A stretch of DNA of 64,000 nucleotides, from contig OX597824.1 of assembly GCA_951406725.2 (NCBI GenBank), forward strand, positions 29,016,001 to 29,080,000. The letters run 5' to 3'. Positions 1,650 to 56,707 of the stretch are shown here, in pieces. The stretch is from Octopus vulgaris. Taxonomy: Eukaryota. A program made the translations under genes and the position numbers. The notes beneath the pieces were generated by a model that saw only the letters and a program-made list of their open reading frames with translations, did not search any database and was not told the DNA's origin. How positions within the stretch are numbered: the first letter of the stretch is position 1; each line of letters opens with the position of its first letter.

Positions 1650-2375
1650 AGGCGGCAAGTTGGCAGAATCGTTAGCATGCTTAGCGGTATTTCGTCTGCC
1701 GCTACGTTCTGAGTTCAAATTCCGCCGAGATCGACTTTGCCTTTCATCCTTTCGGGGTCGATTAAATAAGTACCAGTTACGCATTGGGGTCTATATAATC
1801 GACTTAATCTGTTTGTCTGTCCTTGTTTGTCCCCTCTGTGTTTAGCCTTTTGTAGGTAGTAAAGAGATAAGTATTTCGTCGGTTGTTACGTTCTGAGTTT
1901 AAATTTCACTGAGGTCGACCTTTCGGTTTCGATTATATGAGTACTAGTTACGCACTGGGGTCGATGTAATCGACTTAATCCCTTTCCCAAAATGTCAGGC
2001 CTTGTAGGAAGGATTATTCCATTATGATTCTAAAGCCGCAAGTTGGCAGGTTTGTTGGCACGTAGCTCTGAAAATGTTTTGCGGTTTTTCATCAGTCTTT
2101 ACGTTCGTAGTTCAAATATCCCCGCGGTCAACTCTGTCTTTCATCCTTTTCGAGGTCGATAAAATAAATACCAGTTGAGAACTGATTTCGATGGAATCAA
2201 TTTCCTCCTCTGAAATGGCTGGATTCGTGTCAAAATTGAAACCGTTATTCATTTATGATGCTAAGGAGGTGACCTGGTATGGCGAACAAAATTCTTATCG
2301 GCATTTCATCCATTTTTACGTCCTTATGACGCATTCCATCGAAGTTGACTTTGTCTTTCATCCTTTCGAGGTTGA
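1650..2375 (+). mobile_element. SINE-A cluster: tail-1 copy running into a tail-2 copy, plus degenerate copies
   Basis: Head ggcggcaagttggcagaatcgttagc (A-box-like), B-box-like gagttcaaattcc, core cctttcatcctttcggggtcgat, then tail 1 (tttagccttttgtaggtagtaaaga) and tail 2 (tcaggccttgt). Confidence 0.85.
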
Positions 2376-2651
2376 TTATTTAATTATGAATTTATTCGAT
2401 GCTTCCCGATTTCTCAATCAGTTAATGCTGATTTTTAATGAAAATTGAACGTTCAAAACATACAGAAAGGGACGCGAGCGTCATTATTTTAGTGTAATAA
2501 ACATTCTCAACCATATATACTTAACCCACAGTCGTTGCATATTTGTCGGTTGGCCGTTAAGGGTGTGGAAGAAGATACTCTCTCAAAACGTCGGGTGTTA
2601 AAATACCTGAAAGTCATGGACAAGAGATAACTTCACTCTAATACCATCCTG

Positions 2652-2701
2652 GAGTTATGGACATCGATGTTTCGCCATTTTTGTGGCTTGTCAATAACTC
2701 G
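2652..2701 (-). ncRNA. Degenerate type I hammerhead ribozyme (Penelope-like relic)
   Basis: Minus strand reads gagttat-tgacaa-GCCA-caaaaa-TGGC-GAAAC-ATCGAT-GTC-cataactc. Stems I, II and a palindromic stem III are present; the CUGANGA core is damaged. Confidence 0.55.
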
Positions 2702-3200
2702 TACAAAAACAGGATTGGAGATGAATCATATGCGCTAGGTGTTCATAGTACAATTGGATGCTACGTTTTCTATTAATTTTAACCTGTTAATTTTAACCGG
2801 TACTACTTCTAAGTACTGTAATAATCGCATCATTTTACTGGAAGTAGATGGGATGAAGGTAATCTACGTTGAGCTCTAAACTGATAGGTAGCAACCATAT
2901 GTTTTACTCTACACACAAGAAATACACATACACTCACACACACGGACAGATACACACACACACGTACATACAGAGTGAGACACACATATATAGAAAGAAG
3001 AGAATGTTTTATACACACATACACACACACACACACACATATATATCACGTAATCACGCGACCGACCACGCTATCAGATGTGCTACACATCGCTGGTCAC
3101 AATGCGCTTCACATTGTTTTAGCCTTCAAATGACGCCACCCCACGGAGGGGAGAGAGATGTATGAATAGATGGATGGATGGATGATGAATGGATGAATGA

Positions 3201-3267
<67 letters not shown>

Positions 3268-3666
3268 GATAGATAGATAGATAGATGCTATAATTATATA
3301 AAGGTTTTAAACTCCAGTCTGTTGTTCAACGGATACCGTTGTAGCCTTTAATACTACTTTCATGTATATATATTTACACATACAACGAAGACGTCGTATT
3401 AAATATCTAGAAAACGTGGTTATATACAACCTTACGATGTAACATTTTAACGATCTTTCAGATCAAGCACTCTTTCTGATAAGACTGTTCTTAAAGATAA
3501 CATTTTTTCCTTTTGATAAATGTCTTTCTTGTAAAGTTTGTGCGAACTAATCATTACCACACCTTAATTTACATCAAAATTTGATGTGCTAGCCTTGGCA
3601 GTCAAATTCCGTCTCTAAAATACAGAACGTATTAGTATTCGTTTCAAATTTTGGCATAAGATCACA

Positions 3667-6037: not shown

Positions 6038-6093
<56 letters not shown>

Positions 6094-6223
6094 TTAATTA
6101 ATAAGGGTGAGTATATATGGCCTAGTGCTACGAGAAACCTGGATTATTATAATATTTTATAACATATTATAATATTTTCACAAAATAAATATAAGAGAGT
6201 ATATATTGATCACTCTAGCACCA

Positions 6224-6257
<34 letters not shown>

Positions 6258-6541
6258 GTAATATTACTTACAATAATCCATTTGTAGCTCGTCAGCCAAG
6301 ACTATCTGGATGAAATCCACTCAATCACACGCTAGATTTTACCATAACGATAAATACGATAAATAATTATAATTATGCTGCATTTATTTCTAAATGCTGT
6401 ATTTGTTTTCCGTGAGAGTTTGGCGCGCTGTTGGTTGGGGCATTTGAATTATAACGTCGGATGTAATCAATTGAACCACACGCGTATTTATCGTTATGGT
6501 AAAATCTGGCGTGTGATTGAGTGGATTTCATCCAGATAGTC

Positions 6542-6617
6542 TTGGCTGACGAGCTACAAATGGATTATTGTAAGTAATATTACATTTAATTCATTAATAG
6601 CGAAACAATTGTCCCAA
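6542..6617 (+). ncRNA. Type I hammerhead ribozyme, copy 1
   Basis: TTGG (stem I) - CTGACGA 6546-6552 - GCTA...TAGC long stem II - GAAA 6602-6605 - C-AATT-G palindromic stem III - TC (cleavage predicted after 6613) - CCAA (stem I'). Confidence 0.85.
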
Positions 6618-7074
6618 AATAATCTGTATTTTTGTTATTTTTTATTTGCCCTGTCCGTGTGAGCTAACAGTCGTACTGGCTTTCATGGGAAACATGTATT
6701 TTCGTGGTTGAAACCTTTTGGATTAACTGGTGCTAGAGTGATCAATATAGTGACCACTCTCTTATATTTATTTTGTGAAAATATTATAATATGTTATAAA
6801 ATATTATAATAATCCAGGTTTCTCGTAGCACTAGGCCACTTGGTGTGGAATAAATATACTATTAAATTAGTATCTAATTCTCTCACCCTTATTAATTAAT
6901 TATAATTATGCTGCATTTATTTCTAAATGCTGTATTTGTTTTCCGTGAGAGTTTGACGCGCTGTTGGTTGGGGCATTTGAATTATAACGTCGGATGTAAT
7001 CAATTGAACCACACGCGTATTTATCGTTATGGTAAAATCTGGCGTGTGATTGAGTGGATTTCATCCAGATAGTC

Positions 7075-7150
7075 TTGGCTGACGAGCTACAAATGGATTA
7101 TTGTAAGTAATATTACATTTAATTCATTAATAGCGAAACAATTGTCCCAA
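7075..7150 (+). ncRNA. Type I hammerhead ribozyme, copy 2
   Basis: Identical to copy 1, 533 bp downstream: CTGACGA 7079-7085, GAAA 7135-7138, GTC 7144-7146. Confidence 0.85.
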
Positions 7151-7202
7151 AATAATCTGTATTTTTGTTATTTTTTATTTGCCCTGTCCGTGTGAGCTAA
7201 CA

Positions 7203-7302
7203 NNNNNNNNNNNNNNNNNNNNNNNNNNNNNNNNNNNNNNNNNNNNNNNNNNNNNNNNNNNNNNNNNNNNNNNNNNNNNNNNNNNNNNNNNNNNNNNNNN
7301 NN
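7203..7302. other. Assembly gap (100 N)
   Basis: Run of N interrupting the tandem repeat. Confidence 1.
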
Positions 7303-8133
7303 AAACAATTTTCGCCAGAGATCACAACTCTGTATTCTGCACAACCACATAAACTCTCAGAGATACGAACCAGTGATGAACCGATGAATACACAACGCTA
7401 TTGATTTTCTTATATGAGACACGCCGAAATACTTTCTCCTTGTAGTGTGTGGCTCCATTCTTGCGCATAGAAAATCTCAACATTGTGGGTCCAACGTTTG
7501 ATGCAGAAATTGGTACTTTGGCACCTCTGGGATGAAAGTGTATGCCCATCATAACTCATTGTATACTGAGGTTCCTTGTAGAACCGATTCTTAAATATAC
7601 CCATCAGTATTCCACAAATCTGACATTATACAGCATACAGAAACACCTATCATGCATCTACAACTACACGTTACTAAAGTTTCCGTTCCAACGGCACCGC
7701 TAGCCTTACAATGTTTGAGGATGATGGAAAACTTACACTATCCTCAGTATAAAAGATTGATGTACGGCTGTCCTATTTCTGAGTACATCCAGAAGTCCCC
7801 ACCATTATCTTCTGACATGATAACGCAAAGTGCTTAGGAAGCAAATATGGGTGACAAATTTTCAGATGCACAGTGCAACGAATAGTCCAAAGGAAAAAAA
7901 GACAACATCCAAAAGAACGCATTCAAAAACAGGCGGAGGAATATCCACAATTTTCCTTGGAAATATCAAGACTGAAATGTAAACAATTCTTCCGGGTTCC
8001 ATAGACTTCCATCTTGTGACATCAAACGAGTATTTGATTAAACTTCTGAACAAACTGCGGGAAGAAACATAATCGAGAAGCTGGTTTGTGAATAAATGGA
8101 AGCAGACTACAGTGTGTACACAAAAGATCGACG

Positions 8134-9784: not shown

Positions 9785-10931
9785 TGTTTCTTTATTAGCC
9801 ACACAGGGCTGCACACAGATAGAACAAATTACAAGGTAGAGCTTTTCTTTTGGGGTAAAAAAAGGGGGGTTGGTTTTCGATCAAAAGGGATCGTAAAAGG
9901 AGAGAAAGAGGACAAAAAAGGGGGGGTTAAAAAAAAGGGGGAGAGGAAAAAAATTTGATCAATAGGGATCGTTATCACAGAAATGTCAATATGAAGTGTA
10001 AAGGGGAGGACAGGTGAGGTTTACCCGTGGAAAGAAAAGCCTACGGAAAAGACCACGGTAACCTCGGTCAATGAAGTCACATGTTATATTTCTTTTTTTT
10101 TTTTTTGCAAATAAGCAACTCTCTGTATTAATTTTTACGGTTCATAGAATCATAGTCAAGGTGGCTTCGTCATTCATACGTGCCATCCTTGCTACATTCA
10201 CCCATCTTTTTTTAAAACATTCACTAGACAAAACTTGCCTCTCTACTCTCACTTTTCTCTTCAAGTGATACTTGAAGAAGTTGATGAGAGATTGACCAGA
10301 GAGGAAAGTGTTTGTCTCTAATCCTTTCAGGCGCGTCCACCAGATACATTCTTTCGCCATAGCCACAAGTATGATAAAAATAGCTCTTCCTTCCCGTTTG
10401 AAGGAAGGAGGCGTGACGATATTAACGATAGACTCGGCTGATAAACCGACACGTCCCACACGTGACTGCAGTCGTTCGACATAAGCCCACAGGTCGGAAA
10501 TTGCTGGACACTGCACGATTGCGTGCAGAGCGGTTTCGTCGCTCTGCCCGCATCTCGGGCAGGTCGGCCCCGTGTTTCTCGAGCCATGCCTATAGAGCTT
10601 ATCCCGAACGGGTAGCGCTTCTCGGTAGCACCGCCAGGCCAGGGATCTCTGGAAGTTGTCCATAGATCCCGGGCCGAAAGTCGTTTGAAACAGGCGGGTC
10701 AGGTATTCCTCGTCGACGCCCAGGTTTGCCCCGAGATCGTCGTCGTACCTCCCCTCCACTAATCCCCTATAGAATGCTTTGGTTGTGTTGAAGTCACTCA
10801 AGGTCGACTCGGGACGGTAGAGTTGCTTGAGAGCAACGCGACACTCGCGGTGCCATTCGCCCTTCCTCGGCCTCTTTTTGATCCACGACTGCAGTTCGGT
10901 CATGGAGACGAGTTGCGGGAATGCGTGCCAT
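9785..10931 (-). mobile_element. 5'-truncated Tx1/L1-clade LINE (ORF2 C-terminus plus 3' UTR), inserted in (GATA)n inside an older SINE-B
   Basis: ORF 10142-10903 carries a zf-RVT-type motif; 3' UTR ends aataaagaaacat; (GATA)n on both flanks; SINE-B halves at about 9545-9700 and 11017-11180. Confidence 0.85.
10142..10930 (-). CDS. Tx1/L1-type ORF2 C-terminal fragment (zinc-binding region downstream of RT), 5'-truncated
   Basis: LAWRCYREALPVRDKL...TCPRCGQSDETALHAIVQC matches the CxxC...HxxxxC motif of L1/Tx1 ORF2 C-termini. The frame is uninterrupted up to the truncation point. Confidence 0.8.
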   Translation of the reverse strand, partial: WHAFPQLVSMTELQSWIKKRPRKGEWHRECRVALKQLYRPESTLSDFNTTKAFYRGLVEGRYDDDLGANLGVDEEYLTRLFQTTFGPGSMDNFQRSLAWRCYREALPVRDKLYRHGSRNTGPTCPRCGQSDETALHAIVQCPAISDLWAYVERLQSRVGRVGLSAESIVNIVTPPSFKREGRAIFIILVAMAKECIWWTRLKGLETNTFLSGQSLINFFKYHLKRKVRVERQVLSSECFKKRWVNVARMARMNDEATLTMIL

Positions 10932-43552: not shown

Positions 43553-43642
<90 letters not shown>

Positions 43643-43701
43643 GCAGGAGTGGCTGTGTGGATAGGCGCAGGAGTAGCTGTGTGGTAAGTAGCTCGCTAAC
43701 C

Positions 43702-45722
43702 TCTGACGTGTTCGGACGTGTTTTTTTTGGCTGCTTCAAATGTCACGTGTTGCCACGTGAAATATTGAACTTTGAACTTTTTGGACGACGACAGGTAGGA
43801 CGTTTTATATTTTTAGGGGCTTAGTGAGGTTTATTGCTTGCTTTTAATGTCTTTAGCATTTAATGTTATTTAGCATTAATATTTTTTAGCGGGTAATAGA
43901 CTTCACTTTGCTCCAGATATATTTTTTCTGCCTGTTGTCGAGTTTAAAGTCTCACTTTTTAGTGAGAATTGTGTTTTTTGAGGAGGCGTAGCCCCTCCTC
44001 AAAATATTGATTCAATTTGGATATACCAGGAGGCACCAGGGATATTCGAGGACTGTTTTTTTTTGGGAAGCACCAAGAATAACCATGGATTGCTGTTGAC
44101 GCTTGGCCAGGACTACCTTTTCGGCCAAAAAAAAATATTAATTCTTTGCCAAATTTGAACTCTCTTCCTTTCAGCTATCTTTTATTTGAAAACTCTCTGA
44201 ACTGTATTTTTATTGTAATTCTTCGCTTCTATTGTGTTTTCTCTTCTTACTCTTTCTATCATATTTATTTTTACACCTATTGAACTGTTATTGCATTTTG
44301 TTAAAAATGGCAAAAGAACTCATTGTGTGGGAGCTGGAACCTCCCAAAAAGTAATTGAAACAGCTGGAGGATAAGACCGTGGTGTTGAGAACTTATTCAA
44401 AGTCGCTCAACACCATCGCTGTCTTTCCGAAGGCAACAATCATTGACGAGCTGGCAGATTATATGCCAGCCGTGAAATACATTGCACGGGGAGCCAAATA
44501 CGCAACGGTTTGGTTGCTGTTTGACTCCCCTAAAGCAGCTTGCGATTTCGCAAGCAAGCCCATTGAGGGCAAAGAGATTTTGTTTGTCCCTAGTTACAAG
44601 GGAGAAAAATTAATAAGATTATGGATCTGCGGCCTGCCACCCGGCATTGAACCCGAGTGGATAGAAGACTCTATCCGCCGGGGTCTGGGTGGTAGTAGCG
44701 CTAAGATCCTAAATGTTAGGATACAGCCTGCGGCTGATTGGGGGGATCAGGGTCTGCTTTGGCCCTGTGGGCCCAGTCAGCCAAGAGTCTGGTTTTGTCG
44801 GACTTTTTGAGGATGGCCGGGTCCAAGTATCCGGTGATGCTTGAGGGACGCCCCCCCAAGTGTCACCTGTGTTTGGAGACCGGCCACATCAGGAAGAACT
44901 GCCCCAGGGACCAGAGCGGGATCCTGGAGCGGCTGATATCGGAGCCTCTCCCTGCCTCCTCAACGGAGGGAGAGAAACAGACTGAGGAGGAAAAGACTTC
45001 CTCCAAGGGAAAGAGAAAGGTGGGGAGCAATGGCGACCCACCAAGGGACCTGAAAGCTGCGGGAGAGGAGAACCCGGTGCGTGCGGCTCCGGAGCCTCGG
45101 CCTCCCGTGGCCCAAGGCCAGGGGAAAAGGAGAGAAGGGAGAAACGGAGCGCCGCCGGCGGATTGTGATACGCAGACGGCGTCTCCCGAGTCTCCCGGGT
45201 CCTCTCAGGCGGGTGTGCCGCCTGAGGGACAATTTGTGGAAGAATTCGTGCTCCTCTTTTCAAAGGAGGAACGGTGGAGAATACCGTACGCAAAATGAGA
45301 AAGCGAAGACATTGGGAGGGACTCCGGTCCTGCACGGAGGACCCCGAGTGGCTTTCACAGTTGACTGCGGAGGTCGTAGGAAGGGGTAATCTAGGCAGGA
45401 TCGTGGGTTCCTTCCCGGTGGACTCATTCAAGATCATACCTGTGGACCCCGACCTGACCAGCGATTATTGCCTCGATGAGGCAAGAGCGATGGTCGGCCG
45501 GGTTACATAGGCTTTTGCATTGAACATTTATAATATATTGAAAAAGAGGTTCATTGCCTCCTTTAAAATTGTAAACTGTTGTATCTATTGTAAATTTTGA
45601 ACAATGTTTTAGAGAAGCGAAAGTCTCCCATCACCATCTTCATCCATCACCATCATGCATTAATGTTTTTGTCCAGCCTGCAGCTACTCTTTGTGCTGCC
45701 CTAGTGGCAAATTTTTGAAATA
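43702..45722 (+). mobile_element. ORF1-only non-autonomous non-LTR retroelement (HAL1-like, probably Tx1/L1-derived), apparently full length with 16-bp TSD
   Basis: TSD aagtagctcgctaacc (43686-43701) / aagtagcttgctaacc (45723-45738). It has a 5' UTR of about 600 bp, one GC-rich coding region, an AT-rich 3' UTR of about 210 bp and a terminal stem-loop. No RT or endonuclease sequence is visible. Confidence 0.8.
44307..45510 (+). pseudogene. Disrupted ORF1-like protein (about 400 aa) with a CCHC zinc knuckle and an RRM-like N-terminal region
   Basis: aaaATGG at 44307 gives MAKELIVWELEPPKK, then an in-frame stop at 44352-44354 before ORF 44355-44810. A frameshift near the G-run at about 44740 leads into ...VMLEGRPPKCHLCLETGHIRKNCP (CX2CX4HX4C). 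A probable second shift near 45280 ends at TAG 45510. Confidence 0.75.
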
Positions 45723-46120
45723 AAGTAGCTTGCTAACCAACCACAACATAGTTCCGGGTTCAGTCCCACTGCGTGGCATCTTGTGCAAGTGTCTTCTGCT
45801 ATAGCCTCGAGCCGACCAATGCCTTGTGAGTGGATTTGGTAGACGGAAACTGAAAGAAGCCTGTCGTATGTATGTATATATATATAAGTGTGTGTTTATA
45901 TGTTTGTGTGTCCGTGTTTGTCCCCCTAGCATTGCTTGACAACCGATGCTAGTGTGTTTACGTCCCCGTCACTTAGCGGTTCGGCAAAAGAGACCGATAG
46001 AATAAGTGCTGGGCTTACAAAGAATAAGTCCCGAGGTCGATTTGCTCGACTAAAGGCGGTGCTCCAGCATGGCCGCAGTCAAATGACTGAAACAAGTAAA
46101 AGAGTAAAAGAGTAAAAAGA

Positions 46121-55394: not shown

Positions 55395-56609
55395 TTTTTT
55401 TCTTCTTTCAAATTTGCTTCCATTTCTTGCCGAGTGTCTTCCCGACTCCTGGGGCAAAGAAACTCATAGTATACATTGGTAGGCCATTAAACTAAACTCA
55501 ATAGTTCGTTCATTTTTTTTTAAAGTTAAATTAAAATACATGGGTAGTAATAGTTCTCACATTGACAGTGCTCTTCTCAATACGTGTGATGTACCAGTTA
55601 AGACAATCTTTTGCAATTCTTGCAGGGATGGTAAGCCAGGGATCATTCTCATATAATTTTCGGTTCCCTTCTTGATCATTCCTAGTGCTCCTACGATCAC
55701 TGGTATTGTAACCGCCTTGGGATGCCACATTTTCTCAATTTCAATGAGTAGGTCTTTATATTTTCTGAGCTTGTCAAACTCTTTTGCTGAGATATTATGA
55801 TCACAGGGGATGCTCATGTCGATCAATAAGCAAACTTTATTATCTTGGTCTTTCACAGCAATATCTGGTTTATTGGCTTTGATGGTTCGGTCTGTATGTA
55901 CTGGAAAGTCCCACAGAATCGTTACATTTTCTCCTTCAGTTACAGCTTCAGGGTGGTGATTATACCACTTGTCGGCAGTTTTGATATTGTAATGCCGACT
56001 TATTAGCCAGTGTAGATATTGGCCAGCTCTGTCATGTCTTAATTTATACTCCACTGGTGCTAAGACTTTACATCCAGAGATTAGGTGGTCCACTGTTTCA
56101 ATCATGTCGTTGCAGAATCGGCATTTTGGGTCTGCTCCATTTTTCATCACATTGGCCTGGTAGTTCCGGGTTAATAGGCTTTTATCTTGAGCAGCCAGGA
56201 TGAAACCTTCGCTCTCTGCTTTTAGCCCTGAGCTCCGTAGCCACTGATGGGTTTGCTTCTGGTCAACATCAGCTTGTTTGCTGCGGGCCACATATTTGCC
56301 GTGCAGAGGTTTCTCCTCCCACCTATCAGCCAATTGCTCGTGCGCTTTTTTCGTTGCCATTATTTTCACCTTCTTTGCAACAATAGTTGCCTTACTTCCC
56401 TCGGGTTGTTCAGTTTGGGTATCCTGCACGAGATCAATAGCAAATTTTTTGCTTTCCTTTATGATAGACTGAAGCTTCTTTCGTCTCTCGTGACTTTCCA
56501 CGAGCTTTAGCATCCAGTCATTCGTTATTTCAAGATATTTGGCCAGTCCAATTGTGGTTGTTTTGTAAGCTAGTTCAAATTGGATCAGGCCTCGACCTCC
56601 TTGGGCTCT

Positions 56610-56610
<1 letters not shown>
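55395..56610 (-). mobile_element. Young 5'-truncated Dong/R4-type REL LINE
   Basis: Intact frame plus 3' UTR, bounded by attattat and (ATT)n. Confidence 0.92.
55557..56609 (-). CDS. REL-type non-LTR retrotransposon ORF C-terminus (end of RT thumb, CCHC finger, PD..D restriction-like endonuclease); 350 open codons, 5'-truncated
   Basis: RAQGGRGL upstream of the listed ATG; KPLHGKY, WLRSSGLKAESEGFILAAQD, CRFCNDMIETVDHLISGC, RHD, KPDIAVKD...LIDMSIP...KLRKYKDL. Confidence 0.9.
   Translation of the reverse strand, partial: RAQGGRGLIQFELAYKTTTIGLAKYLEITNDWMLKLVESHERRKKLQSIIKESKKFAIDLVQDTQTEQPEGSKATIVAKKVKIMATKKAHEQLADRWEEKPLHGKYVARSKQADVDQKQTHQWLRSSGLKAESEGFILAAQDKSLLTRNYQANVMKNGADPKCRFCNDMIETVDHLISGCKVLAPVEYKLRHDRAGQYLHWLISRHYNIKTADKWYNHHPEAVTEGENVTILWDFPVHTDRTIKANKPDIAVKDQDNKVCLLIDMSIPCDHNISAKEFDKLRKYKDLLIEIEKMWHPKAVTIPVIVGALGMIKKGTENYMRMIPGLPSLQELQKIVLTGTSHVLRRALSM

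Positions 56611-56707
<97 letters not shown>

Follow-up and report, generated by a model that had tools for sequence, protein, structure and literature searches.

The question raised by this locus is whether an insertion with a single ORF1-like reading frame and no reverse transcriptase (RT) is a LINE that lost its ORF2 where it stands, or a member of a self-contained family, and, if the latter, which machinery copies it. The locus lies in a 64,000-nucleotide window of the Octopus vulgaris genome (assembly GCA_951406725.2, contig OX597824.1, positions 29,016,001 to 29,080,000), to which all unprefixed coordinates below refer. We conclude, with a probability of roughly 0.85, that this insert belongs, as a broken copy, to an old ORF1-only family of non-LTR retroelements, which occupies a fixed base in the head of an abundant SINE and is likely copied in trans by an intact L1/Tx1-type LINE using the same base. 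The members of this family (hereafter half elements) share a single site and orientation, have no ORF2 and keep an ORF1 under selection, and an intact LINE with a similar 3' end occupies the same site and stands in arrays with them.

The insert spans 2,021 bp (43702..45722; like all its features, on the forward strand), has SINE head on both sides and is bounded, as the earlier note described, by a 16-bp duplication with one mismatch (43686-43701 versus 45723-45738, 15 of 16 positions the same). The duplicated 16-mer reads AAGTAGCT(C/T)GCTAACC. Upstream of it lies the left part of the interrupted SINE head (43640..43685), whose first 21 nt are present in two copies and which includes a stretch that we take to be A-box-like. 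The left 16-mer (43686..43701) has the C9 variant, which was seen only in left or internal target copies; this single mismatch is a variant that recurs in left copies throughout the family. The right 16-mer (45723..45738) is of the target type and runs into the remainder of the SINE (45739..46110), where GGTTCAGTCC is presumably B-box-like; the likeness of both boxes was judged by eye.

Between the two target copies, a 5' UTR (43702..44306), whose first 20-nt motif also occurs in the autonomous LINE subfamily A2, has two CACGTG boxes (43744 and 43754) downstream of a DPE-like GGACGTG (43714). ORF1 runs from the ATG at 44307 to a TAG ending at 45510 and is GC-rich (45-67% GC, against 30-40% in the AT-rich UTRs). 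The one stop and two frameshifts reported earlier were found again when the frame was compared with a naturally open sister copy (locus L003), the stop being a premature TAA at 44352 and the frameshifts single-base gaps near 44742 and 45256. The zinc-knuckle sequence CHLCLETGHIRKNC is likewise present (44861..44902; Pfam zf-CCHC 16.8 bits, below the cut-off of 20.8). The 3' UTR (45511..45722) is free of poly(A) and includes an AGCTACT at 45682, which is antisense to the target, and a small hairpin at 45698-45708, the terminal stem-loop noted before; an AATAAA straddles the junction between element and target (45719-45724). The insert has no terminal direct repeats except the 16-mer and so lacks the LTRs of an LTR element. 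It also has no RT, since a query with an intact ORF2 matches the window at 10190-10921 only.

Is this arrangement peculiar to the window? Searched without its SINE flank, the insert gave 85 matches within the best 40 of 2,085 candidates, with at least 30 loci at 75-100% identity, most of them across nearly the full length. Querying with the first 214 aa encoded by an open copy extended the family down to 69% identity within the best 150 of 12,033 candidates. A census set was defined as 80 distinct copies with at least 50% identity to the N-terminal half of ORF1, duplicates being dropped by coordinate; 78 of these have 2 kb of room downstream, and the set includes purposely chosen arrays. In 76 of the 78, a shared junction lies 0.9-1.8 kb from the start of ORF1 and falls at one and the same base of the SINE head, beyond which there is SINE in 53 copies and something else, nearly always another element, in 23. 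An ORF2 between ORF1 and the tail occurs in 0 of the 78, and several subfamilies, which a quick ORF1 tree also recovers, include copies with naturally open frames of 394-414 aa.

The proposal that this is a self-contained ORF1-only family rather than an in-place loss of ORF2 is therefore upheld by the many copies, their open frames, the purifying selection described below and the absence of ORF2. The same ORF1-to-3' UTR layout was expected in many genomic copies and was found. The earlier note had further predicted that each copy would have a different target site duplication, and here it was mistaken, because a single SINE site and orientation is used throughout; it had overlooked the site specificity that accounts for a near-identical duplication at almost every copy.

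Several related insertions were seen. A second ORF1-only lineage of about 1.5 kb (L037, minus strand, 2058-3531; L036, L173, L180 and L216) uses the same SINE base, has an ORF1 nearer to the LINE type and lacks the antisense tail motif. Very short insertions of about 40-90 bp, consisting of the 3' end only, sit between duplicated target copies at L176, L183, L208 and L219. A 2,083-nt contig spans a member of a sister subfamily (L105:815-2875); it comes from a run that we only guess to be RNA, with neither strand nor start visible, and we give it no weight as evidence of expression. We found no description of a SINE-targeting LINE or half-LINE in cephalopods in the literature outside Repbase/Dfam and subscription journals.

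The target occurs in two forms, T4 and A4, with 1,232 exact 3' junctions at the former (control 35) and 258 at the latter (control 0), compared to at least 61,686 and 4,800 exact empty heads, respectively. On the possible tRNA origin of the head, ARAGORN reported no tRNA in the window, and none was among the 19 Rfam matches of one empty SINE copy. Used sites can be used again. Of 50 copies from the primary hits, 15 (two in one array) have a neighboring element on one side, where about 4% would be expected from the counts of junctions and empty heads. Among coordinate-ordered junctions, SINE follows in 28 of 30 at T4 and 24 of 30 at A4, by patterns that leave out some internal-junction variants. 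Stacking is thus clear among families that are young and intact, but as a general habit it is uncertain, its rate in the junction sample being far lower than in the primary hits.

The resulting head-to-tail arrays mix half elements and LINEs at the SINE site. Those at L109/L110, L111, L117, L158, L165 and L094 comprise two to five elements, often in a similar order of subfamilies. Variant 16-mers are found at 23 of 31 internal junctions versus 23 of 72 SINE-side left junctions. One further locus (G000:C1:111116891-111116968) has two 3' ends as an inverted pair between two target copies.

The left target copy differs in kind from the right one. Among solo elements, four recurrent variants, C9 included, occur in 19 of 52 left copies and in 0 of 52 right copies (Fisher p 5e-7, with left-variant classes set up post hoc, once the data had been inspected), and all four are absent from 27 empty heads. 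The left and right copies are the same across 15 nt in 28 of the 52 pairs, and two loci (L106, L027) have private target variants on both sides. The simplest reading is that a true staggered cut is combined with an RNA whose 5' end would carry part of the target, the left copy being resolved either way. A repeated SINE head lies upstream of 4 of 89 elements; with 4 of 73 occupied or other heads versus 0 of 42 empty ones (p = 0.29), the excess is not significant, and we do not propose that entire heads are transduced at the 5' end.

Measured from the first base of the 16-mer, the DPE-like motif starts at 27-29 nt in 30 of 73 non-empty heads, some of which are non-element sites, at 19-20 nt in 13 and at 16 nt in 3, and it is missing in the remaining 27. 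Insect LINE promoters have a DPE at +28 to +32, according to the available part of the relevant report (PMC4748587), and by that spacing the transcription start would fall in the left target copy. We take this analogy as a lead on where transcription starts and not as an established result.

Could all copies share a site merely by descent, an element having landed once in a SINE and the composite of SINE plus element having then been amplified as a unit? The common site and orientation would follow directly, and the donor-type left variants together with the 4 of 89 repeated heads suggest that some target sequence may travel with the element. However, two ORF1-only lineages and two LINE subfamilies, with ORF1s only 20-28% identical, use the one base, and their order varies between arrays. 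In addition, private target variants are duplicated on both sides at the two loci just mentioned, and T4 and A4 variants of the SINE are both targeted. Finally, a T run sits 20 nt inside the element and would halt Pol III. Single entry followed by composite amplification is for these reasons very unlikely, and recurrent insertion at one base is the reading that we carry forward.

If the half elements are copied in trans, which LINE does the copying? In one array, two half elements enclose a LINE of 4.1 kb with an internal deletion, and the RT of this LINE led to a young family with many open frames of 1,140-1,150 codons (best 135 of 24,325 candidates). Members of this family end at the half-element SINE base in 30 of 30 loci, 29 by the strict pattern and one with an extra T. 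The full element is 5.44 kb long, with an ORF1 of 466 aa and an ORF2 of 1,133 aa in which Pfam recognizes an APE endonuclease, RT and zf-RVT; the closest solved relative of ORF2 is human L1 ORF2p (E 1e-66, compared to 2e-19 for R2). Its two ORFs, APE, RT and C-terminal zinc domain are those of the L1 group. We call it Tx1-like from its architecture and target specificity, no named Tx1 reference being among the 120 listed homologues or the ten clusters checked. The final 35 nt of this LINE resemble the 3' ends of half elements. Common target base and 3' end together make the intact same-site LINE, rather than the LINE at 9.8 kb in the window, the likely helper that would mobilize the half elements in trans.

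The LINE at 9.8 kb (9787-10930, minus strand) is a 5'-truncated copy of a young and abundant L1/Tx1-type family, whose full copies have a 1,152-aa ORF2 and which ends at (ATCT)n in 28 of 30 loci. A third family (L159-L163; G000 C29, C6, C3 and C12) has a 1,138-aa ORF2, about 72% identical to the RT region of the helper, and ends in (TC)n, as does Kibi. Target choice has thus diversified within this group of LINEs, among (ATCT)n, (TC)n and the SINE base. Mobilization of half elements by one of these others, for example the (ATCT)n-targeting family, at which the shared terminal motif in the earlier note hints, would draw on 3' ends that are broadly alike and on the youth and abundance of that family, but an (ATCT)n end in 28 of 30 loci and a (TC)n end in the third family do not match a SINE-base end in 76 of 78 half elements, and we consider it highly improbable next to a helper that shares the base. 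Elsewhere in the window, a 351-codon frame (55560-56612, minus strand) resembles by eye the RTE-like LINE pieces in L032 and L105, and an inverted, repeated block of several hundred bases beside a 100-N gap (6040-7203 and 7204-7303) is possibly an assembly artefact.

The half-element ORF1 is only 27-28% identical to that of the helper and does not group with it in the tree. The low identity argues that the half-element lineage is old and, with the separate grouping, that the parent LINE is not among the loci examined. Indeed, no ORF2-bearing element with a close ORF1 was found among the top-candidate loci examined, and a rarer ORF2-bearing parent may lie beyond the best 150 of 12,033 candidates.

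What has kept ORF1 open in such a lineage? The core of the protein is under purifying selection, as the dN/dS check proposed with the original observation confirmed: maximum likelihood gives an omega of 0.27 (lnL -4240.9, versus -4373.3 for omega 1; 34 natural open frames, core residues 8-200). Pairwise dN/dS (45 pairs, from 10 of the 34 open frames) is 0.10-0.25 for the core; the C-terminal domain gives 0.18-0.85. In open sister copies, ORF1 comprises two predicted RRM-like domains, the CCHC knuckle, a low-confidence linker and a small C-terminal domain. The AlphaFold model has two alpha/beta domains (mean pLDDT 68.9, with residues 215-295 below 50), and the Foldseek matches listed are tandem RRM proteins (best E 2.8e-5). 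VIA-align scores are moderate, with the La RRM at Z 8.8 (rmsd 2.6, 81 residues) and RRM3 of Mip6 at Z 8.3 (rmsd 2.3, 75 residues). The expectation of RRMs plus a CCHC knuckle, taken from L1/Tx1 ORF1 proteins, thus fits a modelled tandem RRM-like fold and a knuckle that is present, and the product is predicted to be an RNA-binding protein. Pfam recognizes the zinc knuckle alone, and that below threshold, and L1 ORF1p is absent among the 30 PDB sequence matches and the fold matches listed, an absence to which we attach no weight.

Comparison with LINE ORF1 proteins, another of the proposed checks, did reveal homology: over about 200 residues, the core can be aligned at 27-29% identity with ORF1 proteins from three LINE families in this genome. 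In quick, unrooted trees made without bootstrap, the 35 half-element rows, an Octopus sinensis protein among them, group together at the end of a long branch (SH-aLRT 100) that separates them from every LINE ORF1, with the second ORF1-only lineage (L006, L036) elsewhere. A first protein search returned a sole homologue, from O. sinensis (64%), and ORF1-like relatives were also seen in O. vulgaris, O. bimaculoides and Argonauta. Some relatives are carried in databases as host genes, namely O. sinensis LOC115225585 and an O. vulgaris protein annotated 'EPM2A-interacting 1-like' (both in the P0004/P0009 set), a labelling that bears on the annotation of octopus genomes.

Two other origins, a LINE that was deprived of ORF2 once inserted and a processed pseudogene derived from a host gene or an LTR gag, can point to PDB matches with the Gag knuckles of retroviruses and Copia (in the knuckle region only) and to the relative annotated as the gene LOC115225585, but they are extremely improbable given a common layout in 80 copies with ORF2 in none, the absence of both LTRs and poly(A), LINE ORF1 homology over some 200 aa and a predicted fold that is RRM-like and not that of a capsid. 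The match to an LTR gag or host gene that the earlier note had held in reserve against its own proposal was thus not borne out, and an ORF1-only family copied by a same-site LINE remains the preferred account.

The 3' ends of these elements are tied to the target in two ways. First, poly(A) is absent among the copies listed, and AATAAA bridges 74 of the 76 census junctions (counted by eye, under a junction pattern that demanded AAAT plus A or T); a poly(A) signal that spans the junction makes a short read-through into the target likely. The AATAAA at 61 of 61 junctions in the tail-motif sample is discounted as evidence, the search pattern forcing it. A short read-through into the target has also been proposed for R1Bm (PMC7265360, in the available part of the paper).

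Second, the antisense motif in the tail covaries with the form of the target. Among 60 coordinate-ordered junctions, the form of the motif matches the target in 22 cases at T4 and 15 at A4 and is the other one in 0 and 1, respectively; 22 of the 60 have no clear tail motif (association p 1e-9). A genome-wide search for the tail-target pattern gave 694 matches (control 7). By eye, the first 100 rows of these include 64 with TAC at T4 (two of them from one inverted locus) and 31 with TTC at A4, compared to mismatched pairs in 4 (TAC at A4) and 1 (TTC at T4). Both tail states are represented among elements with ORF2 and across more than one group of half elements; barring an exchange of tails, this implies three or more concerted changes. 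These statistics treat copies that are not independent, and a link between families and SINE variants may come from age. Pairing of the motif with the read-through is predicted for 26 of 39 tails, though not for that of the window copy (probability 0.30), and the second ORF1-only lineage lacks the motif though it shares the SINE base.

A cycle that would accommodate these features can be proposed. Pol II would start at or near the left target copy, positioned by the DPE-like motif about 28 nt downstream, and the element RNA would hold part of the target at its 5' end, with the result that donor variants would return in left copies. The AATAAA would be finished only by the first bases of the target, the RNA running slightly into it. 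ORF1p may coat this RNA, and the helper ORF2p may bind the common 3' end, with its hairpin and GAAATA. After an endonuclease nick in the SINE, the read-through RNA would anneal to the strand that serves as primer, so that the 3' junction would be exact to the base and free of poly(A), and the site, rebuilt at each insertion, would allow arrays to grow.

Perhaps RNA-target base pairing aids site recognition while the SINE supports the expression of the elements themselves, a possibility that we put forward tentatively and rate as rather doubtful. The antisense tail motif, 6-9 nt long, would pair with the read-through target RNA or with the displaced top DNA strand; it would have shifted with the T/A variant of the SINE in at least three lineages, autonomous as well as ORF1-only; and the target would both complete the poly(A) signal and provide the transcription start.

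How does this family relate to known systems? The comparisons that follow draw on the available parts of the papers cited. HAL1, HeT-A and Ag-Sponge are non-autonomous LINEs in which ORF1 is present (PMC5753468, PMC5786205). Like the octopus family, they encode ORF1p only, have LINE-like 5' and 3' ends and form their own subfamilies; unlike them, the octopus element belongs to a mollusc, uses one fixed SINE base, is free of poly(A), and has an additional C-terminal domain in an ORF1 only about 28% identical to that of its helper. HAL1 is moreover defined as an L1 derivative, whereas the octopus family has no named parent among the loci examined. A parallel in lifestyle comes from Dictyostelium, where TRE5-A.2 has ORF1, is deleted for ORF2 and is mobilized in trans by its full-length partner (PMC3159450). 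It shares its target preference with that partner, and its short 3' module is essential. In contrast to the octopus element, TRE5-A.2 arose from its helper directly by deletion, the octopus half-element and helper ORF1s being deeply diverged, and it finds its target through protein contact, at about 50 bp upstream of tRNA genes, whereas the octopus site is inside a repeat.

Target-specific LINEs of the Tx1 clade include Tx1 in Tx1D, Tx1-Mar with SINEU in Mariner-N4_AMi, Keno, Kibi and Koshi (PMC4494074). Insertion into another repeat, a 16-bp target site duplication, tandem insertions that sandwich it, non-autonomous passengers at a common target and microsatellite-targeting relatives are features in common with the octopus system. 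DNA transposons, LTR elements and snRNA genes serve those LINEs as targets; the octopus system instead uses a SINE head, and its passengers encode a selected protein and use one base, not two broad regions. For SART1Bm and R1Bm, target-matching RNA has been proposed to anneal to the cut strand and so aid accurate priming (PMC7265360); those motifs are sense to the target, whereas the octopus motif is antisense and changes with the target variant. In a repeat annotation of O. vulgaris (PMC13282606), L1-Tx1 appears once, in a table, and the words 'target', 'nested', 'non-autonomous' and 'ORF1' are absent from the available text, repeat library and supplements aside. The HAL1/TRE5-A.2 lifestyle and Tx1-style targeting are both known, and the octopus system brings them together.

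The octopus genome thus holds a three-level system, in which a SINE is the landing site, a LINE the probable engine and half-LINEs the passengers, and each insertion splits the putative promoter boxes of the SINE. With young, intact copies of helper and passengers at hand, two open questions become testable, namely why non-autonomous elements retain an ORF1 of their own under selection, and whether the RNA of the tail helps an APE-type LINE to pick its site. The covariation of tail and target is the part that most deserves experiment. If the tentative pairing scheme is true, this genome would harbor a guild, made up of LINEs and protein-coding parasites, whose members follow a SINE as it evolves and pile up at sites that have been used before.
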